NCBI GenBank assembly: GCA_963747695.1
Contig: CAVVFV010000010.1
Coordinates: forward strand, 389,618 to 453,617
DNA: 64,000 nt
Direction: 5' to 3'
DNA from: Candidatus Falkowbacteria bacterium
Lineage (GTDB): Bacteria > Patescibacteriota > Patescibacteriia > Patescibacteriales > WJLG01
Made by a program: the position numbers and the translations under genes. The notes below the pieces were generated by a model. The model did no database searches. It was not told where the DNA came from and saw nothing but the letters and a program-made list of their open reading frames with translations. This document shows, in pieces, positions 1,715 to 64,000 of this stretch; positions within the stretch are counted from its first letter, which is position 1; each line of letters begins with the position of its first letter.

Positions 1715-1759
1715 ATCAGAAAATGAGATGAATCAATAGGTCTCCATTTTCCATAACAT

Positions 1760-2626
1760 ATGTTATATTCGGCATTACTGGGTAATCCAGTTGATCATAG
1801 TGTTTCGCCTGTGCTTTTTAGAATTTTTGCTGAAAAAGCAAACATTGAGTATGCGCATTTGAAAATAAATGTACCATCCAAGGATAGGCTCCATGATTCT
1901 CTAGCGAATTTAAAAAAGCTAGGTTTTTGCGGTATTAATATTACATTACCCTATAAGTTGGATATTAAAAACGAACTGAATGAAATAAGCGTGGAAGCAA
2001 GAAAAATAGGGGCGGTAAATACTGTAGTTTTCAAAAAAAACAAAATGATTGGTTATAATACTGATGCTAAGGGTGCGCTATTAACAATAGAAAAAAAATT
2101 AAGGCCAATATTGAAAAGTGATAAGATTTTGGTTATTGGCGCTGGGGGCGCGGCTAGAGCTGTTATTTTTGAATTGTTTAAGAAGTGTAAAAATGTGACA
2201 ATTTTGAATAGAGATATTGAAGAGGCTAATAAGGTATCTAGCGACTTTTCCTTTGGAGCAAATGAAATAAATGTTGAAATTTTAAGTGATGAGAATTTGA
2301 AAAAAAATTTGAAAGAATGTAATTTTATTATAAATACAACTCCAGTGGGCATGTATCCCCAAAATGATGATAGAATTATAAGTAAAAAAGTATTTAGTCA
2401 ATTTAAGGATTTAAAGGGTAAATATTTTTTCGATGTGATATTTAATCCCTATAAAACAACATTTCTAGTAGACGCAGAAAAGAGGGGTGCTAAGATTAGT
2501 TCAGGCACTTACATGATGATTTATCAGGTAATATATGCCTTTAAGCTTTGGACTGGGATTGATTTAAAAAGATTGAATATTGAAGAGATAAATAATGAGT
2601 TAATTGTTGCTTTGCAACGACACTAG
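1760..2626 (+). CDS. aroE: shikimate 5-dehydrogenase
   Basis: 288 aa with GNPVDHSVSP and NITLPYK substrate motifs and a GAGGAARA Rossmann motif. Confidence 0.85.
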   Translation: MLYSALLGNPVDHSVSPVLFRIFAEKANIEYAHLKINVPSKDRLHDSLANLKKLGFCGINITLPYKLDIKNELNEISVEARKIGAVNTVVFKKNKMIGYNTDAKGALLTIEKKLRPILKSDKILVIGAGGAARAVIFELFKKCKNVTILNRDIEEANKVSSDFSFGANEINVEILSDENLKKNLKECNFIINTTPVGMYPQNDDRIISKKVFSQFKDLKGKYFFDVIFNPYKTTFLVDAEKRGAKISSGTYMMIYQVIYAFKLWTGIDLKRLNIEEINNELIVALQRH

Positions 2627-2629
2627 ACT

Positions 2630-4456
2630 ATGAGCAAAATATCAATAATAAATGATGAGATAAGTGATGATATTAAAGAGGTAGTCCGTTTTCTGAAAGA
2701 GCATAATCTTAATTATGTTGAATTGAGATCTATCAATAAAGAGAATATAATAAACATTCCGTTGCCGAAGATAAAGGAATATGCGAAATATTTGCAGAAA
2801 AATAAGATTAATGTATCATGCATATCCTCCCCATTACTGAAATGGCATCCAAAGAATGTAAAAAGTGCAGTTGATAGAAATTCAAAAGTCGATCAGTTTA
2901 ACTTTAAAGAAAAAGTTAATAATGCCCATGAAACAATTTTTCAAATCGCAGATATCTTCAAGGTTAAATATATTAGAATTTTTTCTTACTTAAAGTACGA
3001 GGATTTTAAATTAAGTCATCTTAATTTTGAGCTAGAGGAATTGATTGATTTAGCTGAGAAATATGATAAATTATTGCTGATTGAAAATGAACCGGTTTGC
3101 AATATTGATACCATCGATGAATTAGCGGCGTTTGTCGCTGTTTGCAAAAGCGATCGAGTGCAAATTCTTTTTGATCCAGGTAATTTATATAAACAAGGAA
3201 GCGATATAAATTATGATAAATTATCAGAGATAAAGAATAAGATTAGATATGTTCACGCAAAAGATTATTCTTTGATGCAAAAAAAGTATGTGATTTTTGG
3301 GCATGGCGATATTAATTATAAAAAACTTGTTTCATTCTTTACGAATTCTATTGATGGCAATGACGATTTATTTTATTCAATTGAGACGCATGCCGGTGGC
3401 GATGATAAGTATAGCAATTCTTCAATTTCAGTGAATAATCTTAAGGAGATGCTAGAAACCCAAAGGGTTAAATACGGTATTGTTGGCTGCGGAAGAATAT
3501 TTAAAAAACACGCACTATCAATCAAGGATGATAAGAATTCCGAATTAGTCGGAATATTTGATATTGATATCCAAAAGGCAAAAGAAAAGGCCAGTGAATG
3601 GGGTTGTAGCTGCTATGGTAGTTTGGATGAATTGATTAATAGTGTTGATGTCGTAAATATTTGCACTCCGCATAATACACACACTCAAATAATCGAAGAG
3701 GTTTTAAAAAATGGGAAAAAGTGCTTATGTGAAAAGCCAGGATGTATTAATGTCGCTGACATGAGCAAGATAAAAAAATATAAAAGATATAAGAGTGATG
3801 CATTTGTTGTTTATCAAAATCGCTTTAATAAACCCGTACTAGAATTTAAGAAGTTTATTGAAAAAAATAAGCTTGGTGAGTTGCTGTATGTTTTTGGCAG
3901 TGTGAGGTGGTTCAGGGATCGTGAATATTATGCTAATTCGTGGCAGGGTAAGAAACATATAGAGGGCGGAATGTTGTTCAATCAGGGTACTCACCTTATT
4001 GATATAATGATGCAGCACTTTGAATCAAATAAAAAAACTGAGATTTTAAGTTCTTTTCGAGAAAAAATATATCATAAAAACATTGATACAGAAGATATAT
4101 TTTTGGCTCAGTTTAGGTCTGGAAAATCAATTTTTAATCTTGAAGTGATGGTTTCGGCTGCGCCTTGCAATCTTGAAAGTAGCCTGTTATTTATTTTTGA
4201 AAAAGGAAGGGCTATAATTGGTGGTAATTCATTGAATGGCTTTTTGAACATTCATTTATTTGGTAATGATAATAAGGAATTTATCTACGATACTGAAATT
4301 AGTGACAGTGTCTATGGATATGGGCACAAAACATTAATAAAAAAGTTATCGGAATATGTGTTAGGTGGAAAGAGGGATAATGATCTTGTTGATTTTGAGG
4401 AAGCGTGTATGCGTGTCAAATTCATGAATGAATTATATGATGCGTCTGATAGATAG
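2630..4456 (+). CDS. fusion protein: xylose-isomerase-like TIM-barrel sugar-phosphate isomerase/epimerase domain + Gfo/Idh/MocA-type oxidoreductase domain
   Basis: 608 aa. The N-terminal half resembles AP-endonuclease-2/xylose-isomerase-like TIM barrels. The C-terminal half opens with a GIVGCGRI dinucleotide-binding motif and a Gfo/Idh/MocA-like layout. Confidence 0.55.
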   Translation: MSKISIINDEISDDIKEVVRFLKEHNLNYVELRSINKENIINIPLPKIKEYAKYLQKNKINVSCISSPLLKWHPKNVKSAVDRNSKVDQFNFKEKVNNAHETIFQIADIFKVKYIRIFSYLKYEDFKLSHLNFELEELIDLAEKYDKLLLIENEPVCNIDTIDELAAFVAVCKSDRVQILFDPGNLYKQGSDINYDKLSEIKNKIRYVHAKDYSLMQKKYVIFGHGDINYKKLVSFFTNSIDGNDDLFYSIETHAGGDDKYSNSSISVNNLKEMLETQRVKYGIVGCGRIFKKHALSIKDDKNSELVGIFDIDIQKAKEKASEWGCSCYGSLDELINSVDVVNICTPHNTHTQIIEEVLKNGKKCLCEKPGCINVADMSKIKKYKRYKSDAFVVYQNRFNKPVLEFKKFIEKNKLGELLYVFGSVRWFRDREYYANSWQGKKHIEGGMLFNQGTHLIDIMMQHFESNKKTEILSSFREKIYHKNIDTEDIFLAQFRSGKSIFNLEVMVSAAPCNLESSLLFIFEKGRAIIGGNSLNGFLNIHLFGNDNKEFIYDTEISDSVYGYGHKTLIKKLSEYVLGGKRDNDLVDFEEACMRVKFMNELYDASDR

Positions 4457-4462
4457 TGTTGC

Positions 4463-4693
4463 ATGAAAAAAACAATTGTAAAATTATTAATACCTGGCAT
4501 ACCATATAAAACTAAACATGGTGGTTTTGGGTATTGTTCAGTCTCCTTGATTAGTGATGGTGATGACATGATTCTTTTTGACACTGGTCACTATGCGGTC
4601 AGGAACGAAGTATTGAAAATATTAGAAAAATATAAAATAAACAAAGTTTTCATATCACACTTGCATTACGATCATTGTTTGAATGTTGTATAG
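4463..4693 (+). pseudogene. metallo-beta-lactamase-fold hydrolase, N-terminal remnant only
   Basis: 76-aa ORF ending in the HLHYDH (HxHxDH) motif. The rest of the MBL fold is missing. The stop codon lies at the boundary of the IS element and of the composition break. Confidence 0.5.
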
Positions 4694-4724
4694 TGGTCCA
4701 GTTTGTCAACACAATATTTTGAGA

Positions 4725-5690
4725 TTAAATAGTTGGGTTGGTCAGGACGGCATTTAAATTAAAGCTTGGTATATTAAGCTGCTCTGTAAAGGCAGTTTTT
4801 TTGTTTTGGCCGAAATAGGCTTCGGCGGGAGTAAGGTAGTTGAGCGACTGATGCGGACGGTAATTGTTGTAGCTGTCAAAAAATTTCGTTAAGCCGGCTC
4901 GGCATTCAGCCACCGATTCGTAGTGCTTGATGTAAACATCCTGCTGTTTAACTGTCCGCCACAATCGCTCAATGAAGATATTGTCCAAACAGCGGCCTTT
5001 GCCGTCCATGCTGATTTTGACGCCTTTTTCCAGACTGGCGGCGGTGAATTTCGGACTGGTAAAATGGCTGCCCTGATCAGAGTTGAAAATCTCAGGGATT
5101 GCCAAGGCATAGGCTCGCTCTTGAACTCGCAAGCAAAAATCGATATCTAATGTGTTAGACAATTCCCAGGCAATGACATAGCGCGAATGCCAATCGATGA
5201 TAGCCGTTAAATAGCAGAAGCCGTGTTCTAATCTGATGTAGGTGATATCCGTGCTCCAAACCTGATTCGACCTGGTGATTGATAGTCCGCGGAGCAGATA
5301 CGGATAAATTTTATGCTGTTTGTCCGGCTGGCTCAAATCCCTCTTTTTCTTCGGATATATCGCCGTAATACCCATCTTGATCATTAGCGTCCGGACATGT
5401 TTTTTACCAACCGGAATTTTATGGTCGCGCCTGATAATGGCCGCTATCGTCCTCTTGCCGTAGCTTGGATTTTCCGTATATATTTCATCAATCAGATTCA
5501 TAATGAGCAGATCCCTCTCGCTGACTTCGGTCTGGTAATACAGGCGGGAGCGGGAGATGTCCAGCAATTCAGTCTGGCGGGTCAGAGTGATATCAGGATT
5601 TTCTCGGTCGACCAATTTTAGCCGGTCGATCATCGTCAAAGATTGATAATTTTTTTTTGAGCCAGTCGAGCTCAATGTCTCGCTGGCCAA
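4725..5690 (-). CDS. IS3-family transposase OrfB (DDE integrase core)
   Basis: DDE triad context is visible (WSTDITY, NSDQGSHFTS, DNIFIERLWRTVK). Probably expressed as an OrfAB fusion. Confidence 0.88.
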   Translation of the reverse strand: MASETLSSTGSKKNYQSLTMIDRLKLVDRENPDITLTRQTELLDISRSRLYYQTEVSERDLLIMNLIDEIYTENPSYGKRTIAAIIRRDHKIPVGKKHVRTLMIKMGITAIYPKKKRDLSQPDKQHKIYPYLLRGLSITRSNQVWSTDITYIRLEHGFCYLTAIIDWHSRYVIAWELSNTLDIDFCLRVQERAYALAIPEIFNSDQGSHFTSPKFTAASLEKGVKISMDGKGRCLDNIFIERLWRTVKQQDVYIKHYESVAECRAGLTKFFDSYNNYRPHQSLNYLTPAEAYFGQNKKTAFTEQLNIPSFNLNAVLTNPTI

Positions 5691-11019: not shown

Positions 11020-11033
11020 TCTTACCTCTCAAC

Positions 11034-11137
11034 ATAATCCGAACCCACGAAATATCCAAATACCACGAACGTTTTACGAATTTTTTCGGTTTGTGGAGTT
11101 CGTTGTATTCGGGCACAATTCGTAGTATTCGGATTAT
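11034..11137. repeat. ATTCGC/CGAATA palindrome family copy (secG|SBP spacer)
   Basis: Outer arms ATAATCCGAACCCACGAAAT... and ...ATTCGTAGTATTCGGATTAT. Confidence 0.8.
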
Positions 11138-11160
11138 ATATTGACCCCGATTTTTAAATT

Positions 11161-13162: not shown

Positions 13163-13203
13163 TTTGTTAGTCAATTAGTTGATTAGGTACTTAGTTGTTG
13201 TGC
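13163..13203. repeat. TTAGT/ATTAGG heptamer-periodic repeat (after SBP gene)
   Basis: TTTGTTAGTCAATTAGTTGATTAGGTACTTAGTTGTTG. Same word family as 39377-39408 and 39989-40085. Confidence 0.55.
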
Positions 13204-23526: not shown

Positions 23527-24777
23527 TTATTTTTTTATTAAGACGACTATTTCCCGCCAGACTTTTTGACCGGGGCGGCCGTAGACGATGGTTCCCCGCC
23601 GGGTGGTGTGAAGAATTTCGCGCAAGTTTTCCGGCAGCGGATTGATTACTTGCCAACCGTCCAGATTGGGATTGAGAAAATGAAAATCCGGACGAGACCC
23701 CTCAGTGCGGACCGGAAAGATCATCACGACCCGGCCGTCCGGTTTCAAGATCTTTTTAAATTCCCGCAAAGCCGATGAATATAACTTTTCCAATTTGATC
23801 TTGGTTTTCACCGGATCAGGATTGCCTCTTTGCGGCCCGAGATATGGTTCAGTAACGACGGCATTAATGGAATTAAATTTTATTTTTTGCGAAATTTCGG
23901 TCGCGGAAATATTAAATAATTGGAAATTGGAAATTGGAAATTGGAAATTTGTTTTTAGCCACGCAATATTGTTCTTCGTATCAGAAATCGCTTTTTCGGA
24001 AATGTCGGAACCGATAATATTTTTTATTCCCATCAAGGCTGCTTCCATTAAGATCGTACCCGATCCGCAAAAGGGATCAAGCAGGCTTGGTAGGAACGCA
24101 ATATTTTGCGTTCTGTCCGGCGGGAACGCAAGGCATTGCGTTCCTACGGCGGGAATTTTTCTCGAAAGGTTTAACATGATCTGCGCCAGTTTTGGTGGGA
24201 TCATCCCGGAGGCATCGTCGCGCTCGGGCCGACCGAAATCGCGGAAGGATAATTCTTTGAACGGCTGCACCGCTTCGGTATAGCCTAAATGCATCGTGCC
24301 GCCATCCTCGATCAAGACGATCTCAATCCCCTGCCGGGTCAAGCCGTTCTGCTCGACCACGACGCTCGACAAGGTTTTTTCTTTGCTGGTCACCAGGCGG
24401 CAGCTTACTCCTTTTTGTTTGAGGATTTTTTTGATCGTCAGACCGATGGGAAAAACCGGCAATTTGCTCGCGCCGTAATGGGAAAGGCCGAAGCAGTATT
24501 TATTGGCCTCGGCGCGCTCGGCCAGATCGTCGTCGATTATCTTAAGAATCGCGGCCTTAATCCGATCATTATTATGGCGGTCGACATCCTCGGTAATAAC
24601 GCCGATCTTGATCGTTCCGCCCAGCCGTTTGATCAGTGCCGGAGAGTCCGTGGCCGGATTTTCCAACAGCAAAATATTGCCCGCTACCATGCGAGTTTCC
24701 GCCTCCGGTCGTAAGGCTGAGATTATTTCGGCGGCCGAAAGAGCCGGGTTAGTGCCTAGAACAAAAAAATATTTCAT
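23527..24777 (-). CDS. Trm11/UPF0020-like SAM-dependent (tRNA guanine-N2?) methyltransferase carrying two in-frame repeat insertions
   Basis: 416 aa with a THUMP-like N-terminal half, motif I LLDPFCGSGTILMEAAL and motif IV VVTEPYLG. Repeat-derived peptides are [21 protein letters not shown] and FQFPISNFQLFNI. Confidence 0.75.
   Translation of the reverse strand: MKYFFVLGTNPALSAAEIISALRPEAETRMVAGNILLLENPATDSPALIKRLGGTIKIGVITEDVDRHNNDRIKAAILKIIDDDLAERAEANKYCFGLSHYGASKLPVFPIGLTIKKILKQKGVSCRLVTSKEKTLSSVVVEQNGLTRQGIEIVLIEDGGTMHLGYTEAVQPFKELSFRDFGRPERDDASGMIPPKLAQIMLNLSRKIPAVGTQCLAFPPDRTQNIAFLPSLLDPFCGSGTILMEAALMGIKNIIGSDISEKAISDTKNNIAWLKTNFQFPISNFQLFNISATEISQKIKFNSINAVVTEPYLGPQRGNPDPVKTKIKLEKLYSSALREFKKILKPDGRVVMIFPVRTEGSRPDFHFLNPNLDGWQVINPLPENLREILHTTRRGTIVYGRPGQKVWREIVVLIKK
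23920..23950. repeat. tandem heptamer tract (TTGGAAA x4 plus partial) inside the methyltransferase CDS
   Basis: ttggaaattggaaattggaaattggaaattt, translated on the minus strand as ...FQFPISNFQLF... Confidence 0.85.
24090..24147. repeat. GTAGGAACGCAA double-hairpin palindrome, copy inside the methyltransferase CDS
   Basis: GTAGGAACGCAATATTTTGCGTTC-tgtccggcgg-GAACGCAAGGCATTGCGTTCCTAC. The left arm is identical to the 27214-27237 copy. Confidence 0.85.
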
Positions 24778-26542: not shown

Positions 26543-26649
26543 ATAATCCGAACCTACGAAATACCCGAATACTACGAACATTTTATCGAACGCTTGTTCG
26601 GTTCGTAGATTTCGTAGTATTAGGATATAATTTGTAGTATTCGGATTAT
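26543..26649. repeat. ATTCGC/CGAATA palindrome family copy (upstream of rpsF)
   Basis: ATAATCCGAACCTACGAAATACCCGAATACTACGAAC...TTTGTAGTATTCGGATTAT. Ends 6 nt before the rpsF ATG. Confidence 0.8.
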
Positions 26650-26655
26650 ATTTTT

Positions 26656-27806: not shown

Positions 27807-27903
27807 GATGCTAATCCGCAAATGAAGGCGAATGCCGCGAAAACCGCGAATAGTTTATTCGCATTTTTCGCGGCATTCGCGACTAATTCGCGGCATTCGC
27901 ATC
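27807..27903. repeat. ATTCGC/CGAATA palindrome family copy (ssb|rpsR spacer)
   Basis: GATGCTAATCCGCAAATGAAGGCGAATGCCGCGAAAA...TTTTCGCGGCATTCGC..AATTCGCGGCATTCGCATC. Ends 6 nt before the rpsR ATG. Confidence 0.8.
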
Positions 27904-27909
27904 ATATTT

Positions 27910-33966: not shown

Positions 33967-34139
33967 ATGGCAAGCTTACGATATTCTTAATTCCTAAATC
34001 TTGATTCATAATTCTGTTAATAATCTGGGTAAAACCTTTGATATAAAACCAGGATGGGCAGCATATCGGTGTAATTATTGTTTAATTTTAGCCAATTTAT
34101 AATTAATAATTTATAATTCATAATTTTAGCCGAAATCTC

Positions 34140-34282: not shown

Positions 34283-34486
34283 ATATTAAATAATCTATTC
34301 TTTTTGACGCTAGTAGGCGTCAATTCACAAAAAAAGCATCCCGCCTCGGCGGGATCCTAAAGTCGTCCTGATTTCATACTCAGGGCGCACGTACAGTATA
34401 TAGTCTTGAGAAATCAAGATTCTCTATATTTGGTAATCGGACTTCGGTTCGAGTTTACCCTTCGGCAACGAAGTAAAATTTTAAAA

Positions 34487-36474
<1,988 letters not shown>

Positions 36475-38214: not shown

Positions 38215-38355
38215 ATAAGATAAGTTTAGCTTTAATGTTCACGAAAATCAAGGGGAATAAAGCATTGAACTATTATGAAATTGACATAAAATATGGCCGG
38301 GATTAACATGGTGATAAGAGAGTCGGGTTCTTTAAAATTTACCAAGGAGGACACT

Positions 38356-39204
38356 ATGCTCAAGCGAATCAGCTCTTGGTATGTGCTATGTGTTCTAAAT
38401 CAGGTGAATTATTTATCCCATTTTGCCGCTTTGATGTTAATTTACATTTTTGTCGCGACTCTGGCGGGATTATTTGACGCTTTTGGTATTCATTTTGAGC
38501 GTTTGATCTGGTTAACCGCCTTAGGGCTGGAGGTGATGGTTATTTTCAGCTTGGTCGCTTATCACTGTTTGAAGGAAAAGATTATCGTGCACTATCGCAG
38601 CGGCGATGAAGAATGGGAAAGATTTTTTCTGGGCGTCGACGCCGTAAGCGGAGAAGTGATGTTCTTGAAACAAATGGATTTTATTATGCTTCCGAAATGC
38701 GAATGCTCCCTGATTGATTTTGCCATGCCGGTATTTTTTGCGGAAGATAAATTCGATGAGGACCACGTGCTCGCCAAGCTGGTGGAAACGGTGGAAATTC
38801 CCGCCCCTTCTTTTGATGAAAGTTTTAACGTCGACATCATCGTTTATTATACCGATGAACCAGATCTTAATACTCTCGTTGATTTTGTCTGCCGGGAATA
38901 TCGCGATTCCCACGGCCGGTATGAGTATGGCGGGTATGAAGATTATCTGGCGCAGTTATTAATGGAGTTTTCCCCGGGCTGGATCTGCGAGGCGGAAAAA
39001 GATTGTACCAATCGGGTTTTGGCTTCGGGCAAGCCTGACAAGATGATCAGCTTGGACGAGGTAATCGACAAATATCTGCAACTGAAAAATGAACGGTTTA
39101 AGCCTGCCTATCTGCCGAATATCCGCCGGGTAGAAATCAGGCTTTCCAAACCAGGGCAGGAAGCTACTATCACTGTCGCAAAACAGTCCGAGGAATCGGA
39201 GTAG
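38356..39204 (+). CDS. hypothetical membrane protein
   Basis: 282 aa from the ATG at 38356 (AAGGAGG 5 nt upstream). Three N-terminal hydrophobic helices, then a soluble domain of unknown function. Confidence 0.55.
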   Translation: MLKRISSWYVLCVLNQVNYLSHFAALMLIYIFVATLAGLFDAFGIHFERLIWLTALGLEVMVIFSLVAYHCLKEKIIVHYRSGDEEWERFFLGVDAVSGEVMFLKQMDFIMLPKCECSLIDFAMPVFFAEDKFDEDHVLAKLVETVEIPAPSFDESFNVDIIVYYTDEPDLNTLVDFVCREYRDSHGRYEYGGYEDYLAQLLMEFSPGWICEAEKDCTNRVLASGKPDKMISLDEVIDKYLQLKNERFKPAYLPNIRRVEIRLSKPGQEATITVAKQSEESE

Positions 39205-39300
39205 GAAATGCCGGAAATAAATTTATTCCGGATCTTGAAAGAGATCCGGAATTTTATTACCACCTTGGCTCCCGCAGAGTCTCAAATAGGGGCAAAAGAT

Positions 39301-39328
39301 GGGTTACGTGGTATGAGTTATGTGTTAC
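39301..39328. repeat. degenerate heptamer array (GGGTTAC-type x4) just upstream of the clpP promoter -35
   Basis: GGGTTAC GTGGTAT GAGTTAT GTGTTAC. Confidence 0.65.
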
Positions 39329-39335
39329 GCGATTT

Positions 39336-39364
39336 TTGACTTTTCCTTAAATTTTTTATATAAT
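39336..39364 (+). promoter_or_regulatory. consensus sigma70 promoter of clpP
   Basis: TTGACT, 17-nt spacer, TATAAT. Confidence 0.7.
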
Positions 39365-39376
39365 CCATATTACCAA

Positions 39377-39408
39377 AACTAATTAACCAACTAACTAATC
39401 AACTAATT
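39377..39408. repeat. heptamer-periodic AACTAAT-type array abutting the clpP start codon
   Basis: AACTAAT TAACCAA CTAACTA ATCAACT AATTTT, then ATG. Confidence 0.6.
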
Positions 39409-39410
39409 TT

Positions 39411-39989
39411 ATGCCTTTAATACCAACAGTTATCGAAAAATCCGGCAATTACGAGCGGGCGTATGATATTTATTCCCGCTTGCTCAAAGACCGAATTATC
39501 TTTTTGGGCGAGCCGATTGACGATCATGTCGCCAATATCGTCATTGCCCAGCTTTTATTTTTGGACGCGGAAGGAAGCGACAAGGATATCAAATTCTATA
39601 TCAATTCTCCGGGCGGATCGGTGACGGCCGGCTTGGCGATTTACGACACGATGCAATATATCAAAAGCAATGTGTCGACGATCTGTGTCGGGATGGCCGC
39701 GTCGATGGCGGCGATGCTTTTGGCCGCCGGCACCAACGGCAAGCGTTTTGCTTTGCCCAACAGCGAGATAATGATCCACCAGGTTTTGGGCGGCGCCGAA
39801 GGTCAGGCCTCCGACGTCAAAATTCGCGCCGAGCATATCTTGAAGCTGAAAGATAAGATGAATAATTTGCTCGCCTTTCACACCAAGCAGGACATTAAGA
39901 CTGTTGAAAAGGACACTGACCGCGATTATTTCATGTCGGCTGAAGAGGCAAAGAAATATGGTATAATTGATAAAGTAATAAAGAAGTAA
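39411..39989 (+). CDS. clpP: ATP-dependent Clp protease proteolytic subunit
   Basis: 192 aa with ...[24 protein letters not shown]...[19 protein letters not shown]...GMAASMAA... Confidence 0.96.
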
Positions 39990-40085
39990 ATTAGTCGATT
40001 AGGCACTTGGGTACTTAGGCGCAACGAGAATAAGCGCTCAAGGTAGAATTCCTAAGTACCTAATTAACTAAGTACCTAATTTACT
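39989..40085. repeat. imperfect palindrome with TTAGG/CCTAA heptamer-periodic arms (clpP|trxA spacer)
   Basis: ATTAGTCGATTAGGCACTTGGGTACTTAGG...CCTAAGTACCTAATTAACTAAGTACCTAAT. The right arm ends 6 nt before the trxA ATG. Confidence 0.7.
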
Positions 40086-40397
40086 ATGCTCGAGCTCAAC
40101 GACTCAAATTTTGATAAAGAAGTCTTGGAGGCTTCTAAGATCAAGCCCGTCCTCGTTGATTTTTACGCCACCTGGTGCGGCGTCTGCAAGATGATGGCGC
40201 CGATCTTCGAGGAAGTGGCCAAGGAAAATAGCGATAAGGTTATTTTTGCCAAGGCCAACGCCGATGAGACGGCGGCCGCGACGGAAAAGATCGAAATTCT
40301 TTCCTTGCCCACCTTCGCCCTCTTCAAAGACGGCCAAATGGTTAAATCGATTTCCGGTCCGCAGGCAAAAGAAATGATTTTAGATCTTCTGAAATAA
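40086..40397 (+). CDS. trxA: thioredoxin
   Basis: 103 aa with active site WCGVCK. Confidence 0.92.
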   Translation: MLELNDSNFDKEVLEASKIKPVLVDFYATWCGVCKMMAPIFEEVAKENSDKVIFAKANADETAAATEKIEILSLPTFALFKDGQMVKSISGPQAKEMILDLLK

Positions 40398-40417
40398 CAA
40401 TTTTATTCAAATAAAAA

Positions 40418-40445
40418 ACGTCTGGCAAGAACCAGGCGTTTTTTA
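40418..40445 (+). terminator. intrinsic terminator after trxA
   Basis: ACGTCTGG-caagaa-CCAGGCGT followed by TTTTTT. Confidence 0.75.
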
Positions 40446-40500
40446 ATGTAAAATGCAAATCTCAAAATGTAAAATAATTTTGTATTTTGAGATTTTAATT
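40445..40500. repeat. AAATGTA/AAATGCA heptamer-periodic palindrome (trxA|ROK kinase 3' ends)
   Basis: AATGTAAAATGCAAATCTCAAAATGTAAAATAATTTTGTATTTTGAGATTTTAATT. Contains an 11-bp perfect stem AATCTCAAAAT/ATTTTGAGATT. Confidence 0.7.
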
Positions 40501-41349
40501 TTAAATTAATAATGCTGCCCCGATCGCGCCGGCATCCAGGCCAAGTTTTGATTTTAATATTTTCGTCTTGCCTTGGGTTTTGACGACTTTTTCGTCAATA
40601 GTTTTTTTCAACTCCGGAAGAAATAAATCAGCCGAGGCCATCACGCCGCCGCCGAAGACAATCGCTTCCGGGTCCAATAGATTGATGATGTTGGCGCAGG
40701 CTAACCCGAGGAAATGGCCGACTTCGGTAAAAGCGCGGCGGGCAAGTTCATCGCCATGGTAATTTTCCATCGCCAAGTTTAAAGGATTATTCTGAGTTAA
40801 TTTTTGATAAGAATCTTCCAGATTTGTCTGCTCATTGAAATTAACGATCATCCGGCCTGGTTCGGAAAAGCCGTGGGCGCCGTAATAAATATTGCCATTG
40901 AACCACCAGGCGCCGCCAATTCCGGTCCCGATCGTAATGCCGTAAATATTTTTATATTTGGCGGCCGAGCCGAGGGTGGCTTCGGCGCGCAAAAAACATT
41001 CCGCATCATTATCCATCTTCACGGGCAGATTGATCCGTTTTTCCAAAATTTCCGCCAATTTGATGCCGTTAAGCAAAGGTAAATTTTTTGCGCCCAATAC
41101 TTTGGCGCCGTACGGATCAACAACTCCGGGAACGCCCAGGCCGACGCCTTTGAGCTTAACTTTATCTTCCTCGGCTTTTTTCGAGAGCGGCTCGATGAGT
41201 GCGAGTATCATAATGATGAGATGTTCGAGCGAATCTTTCGGCGTACCCAAAGAATAATCCATCACGACCTGCTCGCCATCAAAGAGCACGGACTTGATGT
41301 TCGTGCCGCCGATGTCAATTCCTATTGAATAAGTTTTTTTATTGCTCAT
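40501..41349 (-). CDS. ROK-family sugar kinase (glucokinase-like)
   Basis: 282 aa with IGIDIGGTNIK and GITIGTGIGGAW. Confidence 0.85.
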   Translation of the reverse strand: MSNKKTYSIGIDIGGTNIKSVLFDGEQVVMDYSLGTPKDSLEHLIIMILALIEPLSKKAEEDKVKLKGVGLGVPGVVDPYGAKVLGAKNLPLLNGIKLAEILEKRINLPVKMDNDAECFLRAEATLGSAAKYKNIYGITIGTGIGGAWWFNGNIYYGAHGFSEPGRMIVNFNEQTNLEDSYQKLTQNNPLNLAMENYHGDELARRAFTEVGHFLGLACANIINLLDPEAIVFGGGVMASADLFLPELKKTIDEKVVKTQGKTKILKSKLGLDAGAIGAALLI

Positions 41350-41450
41350 AAATTTAAAATGTAAAAGTCAAAATGAAAAATTATTCGAGTCCGCCGCGGG
41401 CGGACGAAATTCATTAATTTTTATTTTTGAGATTTACATTTTGCATTTTC
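41350..41450. repeat. AAATGTA/AAATGCA heptamer-periodic palindrome (ROK kinase start | GH gene end)
   Basis: AAATGTAAAAGTCAAAATGAAAAAT...central TCCGCCGCGGGCGGA hairpin...ATTTTTGAGATTTACATTTTGCATTTT. Confidence 0.7.
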
Positions 41451-42457
41451 TATCTTCCAAACAGCGTTTTCGCATAATCCCAATAACTGGAATTTCCTTT
41501 CACGTCTTTTTCCCACGCCCACCATTCCACGCCCCAGAGATAAAAATCTTTGAAGCCGGCTTGTTGGCCGAAATTGATGATATATTTGAATTTATCCAAG
41601 GTCATAGTTTTCGCCATATCCGTAGCGCTCAACTGGTCGACTCCGACCGGACCCCAAGGCTCGCCCTGCATTTCAATGACGATCCAGTCTTTCGGATGGG
41701 CGAAGAGGCTGACAATATTTTTTTTGAAGCGGAAGAATCCCGGCAAGATCGGATAATGAAGATAGCTTTTCAGTTCGCTGGAATAGGTATTGAGATACAT
41801 GCTCGTACCGAAGATGTCGGACCGCGAGGCCGACGGAACCCAGATGGAAAGTTCCCCCGAATCGGTAATGATCACCGGGCGGGAATCAAGACTCTTAACC
41901 AAGGCGATCTCTTTGTCCAAAAAAGCCGGATCGAAAGGCGGGCATTCGCCGAAGAAGGTAAGAAAAGGTTCGTTCTCCACCTGCCAGGCCACAATCTGAT
42001 CTTTGTCTTTGTATCTTTCGATGGTCGTCCGGAGATAGTCAAGCGTGTCTTGCTGCTTTTGCGCCGCCGATAAATTATCCGCCCAGGTCGGCAAATGGCA
42101 TTCGGGCCAGCGGGGCAGCCGATAGCCGACGGCGAGAATTATCGTCGCGTTCCTTTTGCCTGCTTCGTCGATCTGCCAATCCAGCGCCGAGTAATCATAA
42201 TCTTTTGAATCCGTGGCTTGGATTTCGTCCCAATAAGCCGGAATCCGCAATTTCCGTACGCCCAGATCATCCAAAATTTCCGTGTAGGTTTTTTTCCAGT
42301 CCAAACCTAAAAATTGCGCGTAAGGTTGGGAGAAAGTCACCCCGTAAGATAACTCGGACTGGGGATAAATTTTCCCCTGGGAAAGGATGATGGCGATGAA
42401 GATTATCACCACCAAGACGACCAGGATTTTTTTTATTATTCTTAGTGTAGTCCACAT
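41450..42457 (-). CDS. membrane-anchored clan GH-A (TIM-barrel) glycoside hydrolase-like protein
   Basis: 335 aa with an N-terminal TM helix and a WQVENEP acid/base-type motif. The GH family is not resolved. Confidence 0.55.
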   Translation of the reverse strand: MWTTLRIIKKILVVLVVIIFIAIILSQGKIYPQSELSYGVTFSQPYAQFLGLDWKKTYTEILDDLGVRKLRIPAYWDEIQATDSKDYDYSALDWQIDEAGKRNATIILAVGYRLPRWPECHLPTWADNLSAAQKQQDTLDYLRTTIERYKDKDQIVAWQVENEPFLTFFGECPPFDPAFLDKEIALVKSLDSRPVIITDSGELSIWVPSASRSDIFGTSMYLNTYSSELKSYLHYPILPGFFRFKKNIVSLFAHPKDWIVIEMQGEPWGPVGVDQLSATDMAKTMTLDKFKYIINFGQQAGFKDFYLWGVEWWAWEKDVKGNSSYWDYAKTLFGR

Positions 42458-42460
42458 ATA

Positions 42461-42889
42461 TCAGCTGTCACAGATGAATTGAGAGGTTGCGCCGATTAAG
42501 CAGCCGGCGACAAAACTGGTAATGGCATAAGCCGCTAAGACGATGGCCAAGCCGATAATGGCGGAAACGATCTGTCCCTTGGACTTGGTGATCTGTTCTT
42601 CGTCGCCCATGCTGGTCATATACTTAAAACCGGCAATGATGATCAGCACGATAAAAATTGTTCCTAAAAGACCCAGCACCGCGACGATGATGTTGGCGAC
42701 GATGATCCGGATGTCGGTCGGCGCGCCGCTTTGGCCGAAGGCGTGAGAAATAGCGCCGGTGCCGTTTTCAAACCCTTGCTGGCTGTTGATGTCCACCGGG
42801 CTGGCGGCGAGTGCCGCCGGCATCAAAGCTGCTGCCGATAAATTAAGCAAGAAGAGCGGCAATACCAGATAAAAAATGATTTTCTTCAT
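42461..42889 (-). CDS. small membrane protein resembling TrbC/VirB2-type (T4SS) pilins
   Basis: 142 aa from the ATG at 42889. Signal peptide ending ALAASP, then two long hydrophobic helices separated by ...KYMTSMGDEEQITKSKGQ... The tracked start (42931) runs into the heptamer array. Confidence 0.45.
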   Translation of the reverse strand: MKKIIFYLVLPLFLLNLSAAALMPAALAASPVDINSQQGFENGTGAISHAFGQSGAPTDIRIIVANIIVAVLGLLGTIFIVLIIIAGFKYMTSMGDEEQITKSKGQIVSAIIGLAIVLAAYAITSFVAGCLIGATSQFICDS

Positions 42890-42890
42890 A

Positions 42891-42925
42891 AACATGGAAC
42901 ATAGAACATGGAACATAGAACAGGT
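42891..42925. repeat. tandem heptamer array (AACATGG/AACATAG x5) abutting the start of the VirB2-like gene
   Basis: aacatggaacatagaacatggaacatagaacaggt, beginning 2 nt from the ATG at 42889. Confidence 0.8.
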
Positions 42926-43116: not shown

Positions 43117-43145
43117 TATGCTCTATGTTCTTATGCTCTATGATA
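43117..43145. repeat. inverted-orientation partner array (TATGCTC/TATGTTC) abutting the flippase-like gene start
   Basis: tatgctctatgttcttatgctctatgata, then ATG at 43145. It is the reverse complement word family of 42891-42925. Confidence 0.7.
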
Positions 43146-45739: not shown

Positions 45740-45742
45740 AAT

Positions 45743-45859
45743 ATGATGCGAATACTACGAATTTTTCGCGAATACCGCGAACTACTTATCAAATTAACAT
45801 ATCATAATTCGTTAAATCTATTTTTAGTATTCGCGGATAATTTGTAGTATTCGCATTAT
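45743..45859. repeat. ATTCGC/CGAATA palindrome family copy (GT|rluD-like spacer)
   Basis: ATGATGCGAATACTACGAATTTTTCGCGAATACCGCGAAC...TAGTATTCGCGGATAATTTGTAGTATTCGCATTAT. Confidence 0.8.
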
Positions 45860-45870
45860 GTAAAATTTTT

Positions 45871-49506: not shown

Positions 49507-49519
49507 AAAACTTGATTAC

Positions 49520-49629
49520 ATAATGCGAATACTACAAATTTTACGCGAATACAACGAATGATTTAACAAATTTTAATTCGATTCGCAGAGTTCGCGGTAT
49601 TCGCGAAAAATTCGTCGTATTCGTATTAT
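49520..49629. repeat. ATTCGC/CGAATA palindrome family copy (pilX-like|pilM spacer)
   Basis: ATAATGCGAATACTACAAATTTTACGCGAATACAACGAAT...GTTCGCGGTATTCGCGAAAAATTCGTCGTATTCGTATTAT. Confidence 0.8.
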
Positions 49630-49659
49630 ATCATATTGGAAATTGTTTAGGTATGAACT

Positions 49660-53920: not shown

Positions 53921-53930
53921 AACGCACATC

Positions 53931-53993
53931 ACGTAACACGTAACACGTAACACGTAACACGTAACACGTAACACGTAACACGTAACACGTAAC
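53931..53993. repeat. perfect tandem heptamer array (ACGTAAC x9; GTGTTAC on the coding strand) 10 nt upstream of the large pilin-like gene start
   Basis: 63 bp of uninterrupted 7-bp periodicity. Confidence 0.9.
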
Positions 53994-54074
53994 AATAAAC
54001 TCTGCTCGATAAATTAAAAAAACACCTTAAATTTAAAAAAAGTCAATTATTCGGAAAGATATCGAATTAAGGTC

Positions 54075-54108
54075 TTGTTACGCGCTATGTGATAGGTGTT
54101 GCGTGAGG
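54075..54108. repeat. degenerate inverted partner of the 53931-53993 array, just after the pilC stop
   Basis: cttgttacgcgctatgtgataggtgttgcgtgag carries GTTAC/GTGAT-type words in the opposite orientation. Confidence 0.5.
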
Positions 54109-57137: not shown

Positions 57138-57166
57138 TATTTCGCGCCGTAAGTAATATTCATGGC

Positions 57167-57236
57167 GTAACTCATAACTCATAACTCATAACTCATAACT
57201 CATAACTCATAACTCATAACTCATAACTCATAACAA
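57167..57236. repeat. tandem heptamer array (ATAACTC x ~10; GAGTTAT toward pilB) upstream of the pilB promoter
   Basis: gtaactc followed by eight perfect ataactc units and ataacaa. Confidence 0.9.
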
Positions 57237-57303: not shown

Positions 57304-57324
57304 GTGTTACGGGTTACGGGTTAC
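57304..57324. repeat. tandem heptamer array (GTGTTAC GGGTTAC GGGTTAC) upstream of the LTD-protein gene promoter
   Basis: Same G(N)GTTA(C/T) word as the pilB-side array but in the opposite orientation, so each array points toward its own gene. Confidence 0.8.
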
Positions 57325-57400
57325 GAGATAAATTCATGTGTTGCGTCTCGCATTGCTTGCTTGATGACAAAAATTTTTATTCTTGCTAAAATAGTTTGGT

Positions 57401-61785: not shown

Positions 61786-61813
61786 CCGTAACCCGTAACC
61801 CGTAACTCGTAAC
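61786..61813. repeat. tandem heptamer array (CCGTAAC x3 + TCGTAAC) in the rmlD/ftsK divergent spacer
   Basis: ccgtaacccgtaacccgtaactcgtaac. Confidence 0.8.
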
Positions 61814-61942: not shown

Positions 61943-64000
61943 ATGGCTCGCCGCAAAAAATCCAAAAATCCGTTTGATTACGTAGAGTTTCCCGACCTGG
62001 AGATCAGCTCGGAAACCAAGAAAAGCCTGATGATCTTATTCATCTTGATTTTAGCCGTACTCTGTTTGCTCGGCTTGTTCGATCTGGCGGGCACGCTTGG
62101 CCAATATCTGGCGCAAGGCCAGACGCTCGCTTTTGGCTGGGGCAAGTGGCTTTTCCCGCTGTTACTCTTCTGGTGGAGCTTCTTATTATATAAGAGGGAC
62201 AGGAAATATTTCCGCGGTGCCGGAATACTCGGAATTTTTCTGGCTTTCATCACTCTGCAAGCCTTCTTCCAGATTTTTATTCCCTTGTCCGAATGGAACG
62301 ATTCGGTGAAGAACGGTTCCGGCGGCGGTTATGTCGGATTATTTTTAGCTTCCAATTTTATTAAAATTTTGGGTTTTTGGGGCGGCTTGGTCGTATTAGT
62401 AGCTTTGTTGATCGTCGCTGGTTTGCTCATCTTCAATACTTCTCTCCTCAAATTGATCGGCGGGGAAAGCATTTTCGCCAAGACCGCCCATCCTTTCCGG
62501 GCCGTATTCGGCCGGCTGTTCGGCGGCAAAGAAGTTGAAGAAGAAGTCGAGGAAGAAGAGCAAGCCGAGGAAAAGAGCCAGGACAATCTGTTCACTAAAA
62601 AAAGCATCGTGGAAGAAACCGCCTTCGCTGAAGCTGCGGCGGTCGAGGGCGGCGAAGCTGAAAAGGAAGATGAGGAAGTTTTTACCGCCAAGGAAGAACA
62701 ACCGGCGCGGCGGATGACGGAAAGGGAGATCTGGAAAACCAATCGGATCAAAATCGACCTGCCGCTGGATCTGCTGGATAGCAATTCGAGCAAGCCGACC
62801 TCCGGTGATATCAAAAATAATTCTCTGATCATCCAACGGACGCTGGAAAATTTCGGCATTCCCGTGGGCATGGGCGAAACCCAGGTCGGTCCGACCGTTA
62901 CTCAATATACTTTCCGGCCGGCCGAAGGTGTCAAGCTTTCCAAGATCACTACGTTAAGCAATGATCTGGCTTTGGCTTTGTCGGCCCATCCGATCCGGAT
63001 CGAAGCGCCGATCCCGGGCAAGCCGTTAGTCGGCGTGGAAGTGCCGAATAAGACCAAGGCAATCGTCGGTTTGAAAGAAATTCTCGAATCGGCCGAATTT
63101 AAAACCAGAAAAAATAATCTGACCATCGCCTTGGGCAAAGATGTTTCCGGCGCTTCCTGGTGCTACGATATCACCCGCATGCCGCACTTGCTGGTTGCCG
63201 GCGCCACTAATTCGGGAAAATCCGTCTGTCTGAATTCGATCGTCATTTCGCTTTTATATCAGAATAATCCGGAAGATTTGCGTTTCATCATGGTCGATCC
63301 GAAGCGGGTCGAGCTGACTGTTTATGACGGCATTCCGCATCTGTTGACGCCGGTAATCACCAATGTGCCGAAGACGATCAATGCTTTGCGCTGGTGTCTG
63401 AATGAGATGGATCGCCGCTTCGAAGTCTTGCAGAATTTCAAGAAACGCAATATCCAAGCCTATAATGCGGTAGCCAAAGACCCCGCCGAGGGCGGGGCAA
63501 GCAAGATGCCTTATATCGTCTTCATCGTCGATGAATTGGCGGATCTGATGGTGGCGGCCGGGCGCGATATCGAAGCCTCGGTGATCCGCTTGGCGCAGAT
63601 GGCTCGCGCCGTAGGCATCCATCTGGTTTTAGCGACGCAGCGCCCTTCGGTCGACGTCATCACGGGCCTGATCAAAGCCAATATGCCGGCCCGGATCGCT
63701 TTCTCGGTCGCTTCGGGCGTGGATTCAAAAACTATTTTGGATTCGCTCGGCGCGGAAAAACTGCTGGGTAAAGGCGATATGCTTTTCCAGACTCCGGAAA
63801 TTTCCAAGCCGAAACGCGTCCAGGGCGCTTACGTTTCCGATAATGAAATAAAAAGGATCGTCGATTATATCAAAGAGAAGGGCGGCGATTTCGAATATGT
63901 CGAAGGCGTCACCGAGAAACAATCGGTGCACGGCATCGCCTCGGTCGGGATCGACGGCCAGACCGGCGACGAAGACGAATTATTGGCTGAAGCCCGGGAA
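61943..64000 (+). CDS. ftsK: DNA translocase FtsK (3' end outside window)
   Basis: Open frame from the ATG at 61943 to the window end. N-terminal TM helices, an acidic linker, then a motor domain with GATNSGKSV and IVDELADLM. Absent from the ORF track because there is no stop codon. Confidence 0.92.
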   Translation, partial: MARRKKSKNPFDYVEFPDLEISSETKKSLMILFILILAVLCLLGLFDLAGTLGQYLAQGQTLAFGWGKWLFPLLLFWWSFLLYKRDRKYFRGAGILGIFLAFITLQAFFQIFIPLSEWNDSVKNGSGGGYVGLFLASNFIKILGFWGGLVVLVALLIVAGLLIFNTSLLKLIGGESIFAKTAHPFRAVFGRLFGGKEVEEEVEEEEQAEEKSQDNLFTKKSIVEETAFAEAAAVEGGEAEKEDEEVFTAKEEQPARRMTEREIWKTNRIKIDLPLDLLDSNSSKPTSGDIKNNSLIIQRTLENFGIPVGMGETQVGPTVTQYTFRPAEGVKLSKITTLSNDLALALSAHPIRIEAPIPGKPLVGVEVPNKTKAIVGLKEILESAEFKTRKNNLTIALGKDVSGASWCYDITRMPHLLVAGATNSGKSVCLNSIVISLLYQNNPEDLRFIMVDPKRVELTVYDGIPHLLTPVITNVPKTINALRWCLNEMDRRFEVLQNFKKRNIQAYNAVAKDPAEGGASKMPYIVFIVDELADLMVAAGRDIEASVIRLAQMARAVGIHLVLATQRPSVDVITGLIKANMPARIAFSVASGVDSKTILDSLGAEKLLGKGDMLFQTPEISKPKRVQGAYVSDNEIKRIVDYIKEKGGDFEYVEGVTEKQSVHGIASVGIDGQTGDEDELLAEARE

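Follow-up and report, generated by a model that had tools for sequence, protein, structure and literature searches.

Periodic and often palindromic spacers of changing sequence around clpP, trxA and a ROK kinase gene in a Candidatus Falkowbacteria genome

A 64-kb stretch of DNA from Candidatus Falkowbacteria bacterium (GenBank assembly GCA_963747695.1, contig CAVVFV010000010.1, positions 389,618 to 453,617; hereafter the window, i.e., the whole stretch that was analysed) carries clpP, trxA and a ROK-family sugar kinase gene (hereafter ROK) next to each other, with trxA and ROK forming a convergent pair and a glycosyl hydrolase family 5 (GH5)-like gene lying upstream of ROK (Table 1). Our subject is the four junctions of this locus, i.e., the clpP upstream region and the clpP-trxA, trxA-ROK and ROK-upstream spacers, which hold periodic and mostly palindromic repeat elements. 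A first-pass annotation, made from the letters of this stretch, had described clpP, trxA and ROK as each being bracketed by heptamer-periodic palindromes of locus-specific sequence. Gene searches covered the open reading frames (ORFs) of the window, about 60 of which were scanned.

Repeat elements at the four junctions

As the first-pass annotation had described, a heptamer array lies 5′ of the clpP -35 hexamer. Its four degenerate units (GTTACGT, GGTATGA, GTTATGT and GTTACGC) repeat with a period of 7 nucleotides (nt), and the array stops 6 nt short of the hexamer. The TTGACT-17-TATAAT promoter that had been noted downstream of it is likewise present. The leader that follows, in which units of the AACTAAT type had been read at 39377-39408, proved to be repetitive up to the ATG, albeit with a period of 8 nt (8, 12 or 4 according to Tandem Repeats Finder, TRF) rather than 7. 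This leader is free of G, contains no Shine-Dalgarno motif and is predicted to be unstructured as RNA (minimum free energy, MFE, of 0 kcal/mol). Judged by its position between a conserved promoter and the ATG, the clpP leader array is probably transcribed.

The clpP-trxA spacer is a single palindrome, as had been proposed, with 35-nt arms that are 77% complementary around a gap of 31 nt and with a predicted RNA fold of -32.1 kcal/mol (z = -3.1 vs. dinucleotide shuffles). Its arms, however, follow a period of 8 or 16 nt and not the heptamers formerly ascribed to them: TRF lists the tandem of CTAAGTAC and CTAATTAA with 2.2 copies at 94% and a period of 16, and, taken together, the clpP leader and the spacer arms are resolved into units of 16 nt (94%) and of 8 nt (75-80%). 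The right arm, which doubles as a trxA leader without Shine-Dalgarno motif, is 77% identical to the clpP leader. Moreover, the words that this spacer was said to share with 13163-13203 were recovered from the TRF units as well as by a family search, and a single octamer family connects that array, the clpP leader and both clpP-trxA arms, with CTAANNNN ahead of start codons and TTAGNNNN after stop codons. Internal promoters were rejected for this spacer, in which none was predicted, and for the ROK-upstream spacer, where the sole candidate was an unconvincing 9/12 match on the plus strand.

ROK is flanked by AT-rich palindromes on both sides that are mutually inverted across the gene, in line with the earlier description. 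The palindrome overlapping its stop codon has 36-nt arms (40440-40475 and 40477-40512) that are 83% complementary with a loop of 1 nt, and its folding exceeds that of shuffled sequences on either strand (z = -5.0 for the minus and -8.3 for the plus strand). The upstream palindrome has 34-nt arms that are 82% complementary across a 31-nt gap (z = -4.3), and a GC hairpin without U-tract (41389-41405) sits in its loop. Both palindromes can pair with each other over 38 nt at 82% and 31 nt at 84%, i.e., they are 82-84% identical copies in opposite orientation. Between trxA and ROK, the arms are accompanied by a terminator that both genes have in common, and its homologue in one related genome (L088) has a T·G wobble and a C-G pair exchanged at two adjacent stem positions. 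The combination of GC stem and U-tract that marks an intrinsic terminator was found only here and at 39225-39252; the AT-rich palindromes themselves do not show it. Altogether, arms begin 0-13 nt from a stop codon and end 0-10 nt from a start codon.

Table 1. Genes and repeat elements of the locus and related arrays elsewhere in the window
Feature	Position	Strand	Remarks
Single-arm (TTAGNNNN)4 array	13163-13203	+	Period 16; just past a stop codon; word family of the clpP-trxA left arm
GTTAYGN heptamer array, four degenerate units	39303-39329	+	TRF period 7; matches the pattern GTTAYGNGTTAYG
clpP promoter, TTGACT-17-TATAAT	39336-39364	+	Scores 11/12
clpP 5′ leader	39365-39410	+	(AACTAATN)4 with period 8 at 39377-39408; reaches the ATG
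clpP coding sequence	39411-39989	+	Syntenic orthologues, 87-97% identical, carry PF00574 (ClpP)
clpP-trxA left arm	39985-40019	+	(ATTAGNNN)-type octamers; begins on the clpP stop codon
clpP-trxA right arm	40051-40085	+	(CTAAGTAC CTAATTAA)2, period 8/16; ends at the trxA ATG
trxA coding sequence	40086-40397	+	Syntenic orthologues carry PF00085 (thioredoxin)
Bidirectional intrinsic terminator (A-tract, GC stem, T-tract)	40412-40445	.	14-nt inverted repeat, 93%; common to trxA and ROK
AT-rich palindrome, AAATGYA/AAATCTC heptamer-type units	40440-40512	.	Period 7; overlaps the ROK stop codon
ROK-family sugar kinase coding sequence	40501-41349	-	A 100%-identical protein carries PF00480
ROK-upstream stop-to-start palindrome	41350-41448	.	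Arms 41350-41383 and 41415-41448
Gene upstream of ROK, co-directional	41450-42457	-	Weak glycosyl hydrolase family 5-like match; stop codon adjoins the palindrome
(GTTACGT)9.3 perfect array	53930-53994	-	Leader of a large pilin-like gene; GTTAYGN family
(GTTATGA)9.6 perfect array	57166-57234	-	Just upstream of the pilB (T2SSE) promoter, type IV pilus cluster; GTTAYGN family
(GTTACGG)3	57306-57325	+	Upstream of an LTD/PKD surface-protein gene
(GTTACGG)4	61787-61813	-	Upstream of rmlD

Two parts of the earlier description do not hold. The elements are not heptameric throughout, since two of the four are octameric and only the array at 39303 and the ROK-flanking arms have heptamers, and their words are not specific to the locus, since all four are related to sequences at other places of the window, i.e., the GTTAYGN matches detailed below, the TTAG/CTAA octamers and the ROK-flanking copies. 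Within the 64 kb, the palindrome families count two copies (ROK-flanking), three to four arms (TTAG) and four to five copies at 72-86% identity (a dispersed family referred to as R20).

Periodicity, orthologous junctions and leaders

The first-pass annotation had made its generalisation depend on an excess of 7-nt periodicity or palindromicity in intergenic DNA over shuffled controls, and such an excess is there. Pooled intergenic self-match exceeds dinucleotide shuffles with z-scores of 9.0, 5.6 and 3.8 at lags 7, 14 and 8, respectively, while coding DNA has the codon period of 3 only and no excess at lag 7. When 21-nt windows were scored, at least 15 of 21 self-matches occurred at 313 positions for lag 7 and at 217 positions for lag 14, with 0-54 positions for each of the other lags from 2 to 15. 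Period-7 tracts reach 3.9 per kb in the window, about 50 times the 0.08 per kb of a set of 77 unrelated bacterial loci, whose dominant periods are multiples of 3. Some 20 arrays of period 7, with a wide variety of units, were detected by TRF in the window, and at least 12 distinct canonical units are present in its 64 kb. There is no preponderance of one or a few units of the kind known for STRR1-3 (short tandemly repeated repetitive sequences), TAACTGA or GGGAATC, the largest family (GTTAYGN) having six sites. A consensus behind all units (TTA-N4 or TAA-N4) was considered as well and dismissed, as it could not be distinguished from AT-richness.

When the 41 spacers of at least 50 nt were examined one by one, an inverted repeat beyond shuffles (p ≤ 0.02) was found in 8, some of which are ordinary terminators, and period 7 was found in 5 at p ≤ 0.02 and in about 14 at p ≤ 0.07. 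Such elements are carried by about a fifth to a third of the spacers only, and the proposal that every gene is bracketed by them cannot be upheld. Arrays that form a single arm are common in the window.

To follow the four junctions in other genomes, a comparison set was chosen by ROK homology. Close homologues of this protein are numerous (77-89% identity), and the set comprises eleven further loci (denoted by L numbers) from 10 distinct related Patescibacteria genomes, with a ROK identity of 56-89%. Relatives retrieved through ClpP were discarded as a comparison set, being too distant, non-syntenic and without the signal. All loci of the ROK-based set keep the synteny of pilin, hypothetical, ROK, trxA and clpP genes. 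An intergenic lag-7 excess was present in 7 of the 7 relatives with gene calls (z 2.5-9.6), together with a weaker one at lag 8 (z 2.1-4.1), and their coding DNA showed neither. Both the statistics and the comparison of genomes support the generalisation made in the first-pass annotation.

The clpP promoter is kept as TTGAC[T/A]-17-TATAAT in 10 of the 10 genomes with sequence at this place (the window and nine relatives), and therefore serves as a reliable landmark that places the leader arrays inside the 5′ untranslated region (5′UTR). The GTTAYGN array is found at the orthologous place next to the -35 hexamer with four units in the window, three in L094 and two in L089. Around this landmark, the four orthologous junctions are mostly refilled by periodic, mostly palindromic elements made of different words. 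Specifically, the clpP leader consists of AACTAATN in the window, L094 and L088, of AATTCTT in L081 and L089, and of AATTNAT in L083, L085, L087 and L093. The clpP-trxA spacer contains ATTAGNNN in the window, L085 and L089, AAATCTCA-type words in L081 and L093, CATGTAG in L088 and L094, AATTTTT in L083 and GGTAGTT in L086; it measures only 11 nt in L087, in contrast to 73-171 nt elsewhere. Between trxA and ROK, 9 of 11 genomes show the same succession of arm, A-tract, GC hairpin, T-tract and complementary arm, for which at least five word families are used (AAATGYA, AAAAGAA, AAGAGAT, AAGAATT and GGTAATT). The ROK-upstream spacer, finally, is built from AAATGTA in the window, ATTCGTA in L094, AATTTTT in L083, L086 and L093, and GAAATTN in L085; in L090 and L091, this spacer is just 10 and 27 nt long, respectively.

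It is the architecture that is conserved and not the sequence, and some junctions lack an element. The recurrent layout proposed earlier, in which a gene end is followed by a periodic palindrome and then by the next start, was accordingly retrieved with other words at most of the four junctions in the 10 relatives. The genomes group differently from one spacer to the next, so that the word pattern is a mosaic, and a single family often occupies two spacers of one genome (the window, L081, L083 and L087). Some stretches are closely shared, as in the clpP leader, where 44 of 46 nt are identical between the window and L094. The recurrence in relatives speaks for a common generating process, a structural preference or both.

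Array lengths change in steps. Between the -10 hexamer and the clpP ATG lie 50, 50, 50, 49, 43, 43 and 36 nt in genomes with heptamer leaders and 46, 46 and 46 nt in those with octamer leaders, and the 7-nt steps indicate the gain or loss of whole units. In several arrays, TRF found a stronger higher-order period of 14 nt, as expected if blocks of two units duplicate. Whole elements have been copied too, as is evident from the inverted pair flanking ROK and from paralogous spacers in relatives.

The leaders were compared at 127 gene starts with an upstream spacer of at least 40 nt, taken from the window and seven relatives (orthologues included, hence not fully independent). A Shine-Dalgarno-like motif was present at 21 of these starts (about 17%), and it was found in none of the 31 periodic leaders vs. 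21 of the 96 non-periodic ones (Fisher p = 0.002), an exclusion that is partly compositional. Pyrimidines outnumber purines in 23 of the periodic leaders (the reverse in 6), and G is rarer than C in 19 (more frequent in 8). The anti-Shine-Dalgarno sequence is present in the 16S rRNA.

Among the word families, GTTAYGN is the largest, its pattern GTTAYGNGTTAYG giving 26 matches at six sites in the window vs. 0.46 expected, five of these sites lying outside the clpP array. It always stands in sense orientation, upstream of clpP, the large pilin-like gene, pilB, the LTD/PKD gene and rmlD, and it is the only family with a layout reminiscent of heptad operators (i.e., at least two contiguous 7-bp units beside a promoter). 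The array of the pilin-like gene (599 amino acids, N_methyl motif) ends 12 nt before the ATG and has a degenerate inverted partner at 54075-54105; TRF lists this perfect array and that near pilB as (CACGTAA)9.3 and (TAACTCA)9.6, respectively. The two GTTACGG arrays appear as a long-range inverted repeat because the same upstream array is present on oppositely facing genes. Orientation is also uniform for TTACTTN, in sense before pilC and an ftsK-like gene (2/2), and for ATGTTCY, at both of two divergent starts (2/2).

Further repeats were noted alongside these families. The (TTACTTN)5 array adjoins the ATG of a long plus-strand ORF (61943-64000, MARRKKSKNPF..., with a membrane N-terminus) that runs off the window end and is probably ftsK; it was missing from the ORF list, where several spurious minus-strand ORFs stood in its place. 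The (ATGTTCY)n arrays (42889-42924 and 43117-43142) lie at the divergent starts of T4SS_pilin and Polysacc_synt genes and contain an ATG in each unit, which renders the start-codon assignment of both genes ambiguous; an orthologous array is held by L086. A perfect (AATTGGA)4.6 array (23918-23949) lies in frame within a methyltransferase-domain ORF on the minus strand (23530-24777), where a change by one unit would shift the frame. The R20 palindromes have the core GTAGTATTCGCATTATGT, a period of about 20-21 nt and arms of about 30 nt, and are dispersed over 11020-11160, 26609-26655, 27867-27908, 45740-45870 and 49507-49659; their right arm always lies just 5′ of an ATG (those of a solute-binding protein gene, rpsF, rpsR, a pseudouridine synthase gene and pilM), and the ATTCGTA palindrome in the ROK-upstream spacer of L094 is related to them. 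Beyond the clade of the window, strong heptamer arrays were also present in unrelated loci fetched through ClpP, with about 30 units of (AGGTGGT) in L021 (1358-1565) and (CTTGTGC)8 in Fretibacterium (L057, 4975-5034), and another Patescibacterium (L028) had many AT-rich arrays across the whole locus; heptamer arrays are patchily distributed across bacteria.

A search with Rfam 15 at gathering scores returned only the 16S rRNA in the window, and a permissive search of 39100-41600 gave only matches of 17-28 bits (vs. thresholds of 55-128), i.e., terminator look-alikes at chance level. In the 16S rRNA gene (34481-36474), the match ends at 35893, short of the canonical 3′ end (AAGTCGTAACAAGG...GGATCACCTCCTTTCT, within 36421-36474), from which an ORF-less insertion of about 500 nt in the 3′ domain can be deduced; at the equivalent place, L081 and L094 have an ORF for a LAGLIDADG endonuclease. 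Upstream of this gene, (TAATTNA)5 (34093-34127) ends 13 nt before TTGACA at 34140, the -35 hexamer of the likely 16S rRNA promoter, in the position of an UP-element. Between trpS/tyrS and clpP, a 303-amino acid ORF without Pfam match (38293-39204) marks a variable junction, as other relatives have different inserted ORFs at this spot and trpS/tyrS and clpP are directly divergent in L081 and L087. At the other end of the window, the first 4.7 kb have a GC content of 0.30-0.37 (about 0.48 elsewhere) and lie next to a gene for an IS3-like transposase (rve, HTH_21; 4728-5690, minus strand), and this segment (1-5690) may have been laterally acquired.

Proposed slippage and copying, and rival explanations

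We would put at about even odds an account in which these spacers are simple-repeat palindromes that grow by slippage, become inverted duplications, are copied between nearby spacers and replaced between species, and are then transcribed. The starting material would be short tandem arrays of 3-10 units of 7 (sometimes 8) nt, mostly AT-rich, that grow and shrink by whole units, presumably through replication slippage. Whole elements are duplicated in inverted orientation, copied to nearby spacers and swapped wholesale between species, so that this origin is for the most part documented by the observations above. Their transcription is suggested by the position of the conserved promoter and by the placement of elements from stop to start codon. 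A single arm between promoter and ATG, as for clpP, would yield a pyrimidine-rich, G-poor and unstructured leader without Shine-Dalgarno motif, whereas paired arms that bridge the gap between a stop codon and the following ATG (clpP-trxA and GH5-ROK) would yield a long AU-rich hairpin that could serve as a 3′-end or processing hairpin. A terminating ribosome would open such a stem and tie downstream translation to its unwinding; translational coupling or processing is plausible because the stop codon is at most 13 nt away from, or part of, the beginning of the first arm, while the second arm ends at the ATG. Between trxA and ROK, the arms flanking the GC hairpin would extend the bidirectional terminator. 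We infer that the periodicity itself is a mutational footprint and not a functional requirement.

A number of observations weigh against this account. Slippage alone leaves unexplained why the unit is 7 or 8 nt, why both arms change jointly and why GTTAYGN arrays always face their gene. No copy-number change or indel was seen in the arrays of two near-identical strain pairs, i.e., L081/L082 (1 mismatch in 2935 nt, located in the ROK-upstream spacer) and L083/L084 (19 in 16182 nt, none of the 19 single-nucleotide polymorphisms falling within an array), although the arrays of 9-10 units are not among these loci and minority variants are masked in assemblies. Turnover is consequently slow at that scale and slippage not fast, and hypermutable copy number found no support in these pairs. 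Since some orthologous junctions (L087 and L090) have no element, the structure and any function it has are dispensable. Pairing is kept, but compensatory changes are few (1 of 20, 1 of 27 and 0 of 32 pairs), as can be expected from homologous sets of only two or three sequences. Folding is no stabler for the sense than for the antisense strand (9 vs. 10 spacers, with -0.4 kcal/mol as the mean difference), so that a folding asymmetry through G·U pairs, considered as a sign of selection at the RNA level, was dropped; the palindromes look like symmetric DNA repeats rather than RNA stems kept through G·U pairs. Likewise, periodic leaders are no less structured than their composition predicts (mean MFE -1.9 vs. 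-1.8 kcal/mol), and shuffles of the same composition led us to reject the idea that periodicity is selected for unstructured leaders: high AT and low G content, rather than periodicity, account for the absence of structure.

The palindromes might alternatively be small non-autonomous mobile elements, comparable to REPINs (hairpin-forming doublets of repetitive extragenic palindromic, REP, sequences) or miniature inverted-repeat transposable elements (MITEs), with several families replacing each other and the periodicity being secondary. Families do recur within 64 kb, the ROK-upstream palindrome is an inverted copy of the trxA-ROK element with extra loop sequence, one family can occupy different spacers of different genomes in a mosaic distribution, orthologous junctions are either empty or filled (cf. 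the clpP-trxA spacer of L087), and some leaders are more conserved than the adjoining protein (cf. the clpP leader in L094). The first-pass annotation had preferred a shared generator or structural requirement over the spread of a mobile sequence; the layout indeed recurs in relatives, yet whole elements were evidently copied (the ROK pair, L081, L083, L087 and R20), and its inference against a spreading sequence is not supported. Mobility nevertheless strikes us as rather unlikely. Elements span exactly from stop to start codon without target-site duplications or defined termini, their copies are just 75-85% alike, single-arm arrays are common, and arms that are tandem arrays stepping by 7 are not predicted by transposition. 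The only transposase gene in the window is the IS3-like one, with no gene of RAYT (REP-associated tyrosine transposase)/IS200 type; none of the ORFs scanned matched RAYT (Y1_Tnp), RNase III (rnc), Csp, S1 (rpsA), csrA or ribbon-helix-helix genes, a result that covers about 64 kb of the genome and is of little weight. More specific assignments failed as well: the elements are not MITEs, as they adjoin stop and start codons without flanking direct repeat, nor do the four elements end in the GTAG of REP or REPIN termini. Integron attC sites were discarded because the ends read ATTAG...TTACT and AAATT...ATTTT instead of R″/R′ (RYYYAAC...GTTRRRY), and integron cassettes because the genes are housekeeping genes that are syntenic in 10 relatives, with ROK inverted relative to trxA.

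Another possibility is that the arrays are bound in register by a protein whose subunits each read about 7 nt of RNA or DNA, e.g., a cold-shock-domain or S1-type protein on leaders without Shine-Dalgarno motif, or an omega-type ribbon-helix-helix repressor on heptad operators by promoters. Cold-shock domains cover 6-7 nt, and omega binds 7-bp heptads. Such a reader could account for the GTTAYGN array being always in sense upstream of five genes and being retained by the -35 hexamer of clpP in L094 and L089, for the fixed orientation per family (TTACTTN, ATGTTCY, CTAANNNN before starts and TTAGNNNN after stops), and for the replacement of Shine-Dalgarno motifs by periodic leaders; in Beggiatoaceae, S1, Csp or CsrA were proposed by MacGregor for TAACTGA repeats (PMC4679880). 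We nonetheless hold it to be doubtful, as no sequence-specific reader could cover dozens of units with a complete change of word at an orthologous site, octamer and heptamer arrays coexist, the orientation counts are small and partly non-independent, and csp, rpsA, csrA and ribbon-helix-helix genes were not found in the window. Frequent gain and loss of units might also switch or tune expression (phase variation), as in the Haemophilus hmw contingency loci, a documented precedent (PMC12721329). The perfect 9-10-unit arrays beside type IV pilus genes (the pilin-like leader and upstream of pilB) and the in-frame array inside the methyltransferase ORF fit this picture, and contingency is plausible for these three. 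For the elements around clpP, trxA and ROK it is very improbable, because they are short (3-4.6 units) and degenerate (68-85% matches), flank housekeeping genes and show no array indels in the two near-identical strain pairs.

A bolder reading, which we regard as a long shot, would be that periodic leaders free of Shine-Dalgarno motifs and stop-to-start hairpins form a general expression punctuation in this Patescibacteria clade with a dedicated upkeep process. This process could be a genome-wide form of the transcription- and RNase III-dependent repeat dynamics of hmw, or a word-independent protein reading 7-8 nt per subunit, and it would explain the joint change of arms, the fixed orientation of families and an architecture that survives full sequence turnover.

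Comparison with known repeat systems

We know of no accepted mechanism for the number 7 in such repeats, nor of a function shown outside one Haemophilus locus. The excess of heptanucleotides in bacterial intergenic DNA has itself been known for decades, from the cyanobacterial STRR sequences and from a 2007 survey; as that survey is cited in later papers (Mrazek 2007, via PMC4679880 and PMC4692102), heptamers were the commonest class of long simple repeats in many bacteria and polymerase slippage was suggested. The value of the present clade is that of a comparative system for an old question and not of a new mechanism. It is an unusually clean one, given its small genomes, its synteny, a conserved promoter as landmark and the same four junctions filled with different words. 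With more genomes and metatranscriptomes, slippage, copying between spacers and hairpin selection could be separated as drivers, and it could be learned how translation proceeds when a Shine-Dalgarno motif precedes only about 17% of the starts whose spacer reaches 40 nt or more, and whether the elements are of any consequence. In practice, the arrays mislead ORF callers, several starts in the window being over-extended into arrays, and they could also mislead repeat and terminator predictors on genomes of the candidate phyla radiation.

The closest kind of system is that of the cyanobacterial heptanucleotide repeats, i.e., STRR of Calothrix and Nostoc, GGGGAYT, and the P6b stem of the Nostoc tRNA-Leu(UAA) intron, which likewise consist of tandem 7-nt units in non-coding DNA (PMC4692102, PMC4476775). 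In P6b of the trnL intron, both stem arms are made of repeats, 7- or 14-nt indels occur on both arms, and motif classes have been replaced repeatedly (PMC4476775), as here. Cyanobacteria, however, have a few dominant units per genome, in contrast to the dozens of units plus octamers within 64 kb of the present window, whose elements moreover fill whole stop-to-start spacers and flank terminators in a small-genome Patescibacterium. The TAACTGA repeats of marine Beggiatoaceae resemble the present arrays in being arranged as 2-6 copies in sense directly 5′ of start codons, where few canonical ribosome-binding sites occur and no functional theme is apparent downstream (MacGregor 2015, PMC4679880). 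A near-TAACTGA unit exists in the window (TAACTCA, 9.6 copies), but Beggiatoaceae have one unit genome-wide that is inverted in 1 of 170 repeat sets, unlike the many units and common palindromic pairing seen here.

To our knowledge, hmw is the only heptamer-repeat hairpin that has been dissected experimentally. In Haemophilus influenzae, its (ATCTTTC)n array is transcribed as one arm of a long 5′UTR hairpin that is cut by RNase III (PMC12721329), and the heptamer array in a 5′UTR is what both systems have in common. There, phase variation has been demonstrated at one virulence locus that has 11 or more perfect repeats and a non-repeat, G-rich partner arm (PMC12721329), whereas here many housekeeping loci have short degenerate arrays with two repetitive arms and no copy-number variation was seen in the strain pairs above. 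The GGGAATC arrays of Xanthomonas are intergenic too, typically with four units and with some inverted pairs between convergent genes, and vary between species at conserved junctions (Rehm 2015, PMC4692102). They are G-rich, quadruplex-prone and of one consensus, in contrast to the AT-rich elements with many units described here. REP sequences, bacterial interspersed mosaic elements (BIMEs) and REPINs of Enterobacteria and Pseudomonas, which can stabilise upstream mRNA, are similarly extragenic imperfect palindromes of about 70-150 nt between co-transcribed or convergent genes, with several families per genome, but unlike the present elements REPs share a family sequence that is conserved, end in GTAG, come with a cognate RAYT transposase and lack an internal 7-nt periodicity. 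The RNase III hairpins of the phage T7 early mRNA and coupling hairpins share the order of gene end, long stem and next start within one transcript, yet each of the T7 sites is a conserved structure of its own in which the internal loops are defined, and the present hairpins are predicted from sequence.

In the literature, we found no description of such repeats in Patescibacteria. Placed among these systems, the spacers around clpP, trxA and ROK are a lineage-wide form of a known, unexplained class of bacterial repeats and not a new kind of system; what sets them apart is the number of word families per genome, the occurrence of octamers with heptamers, the repetitive arms that fill stop-to-start gaps, and the Patescibacteria host.

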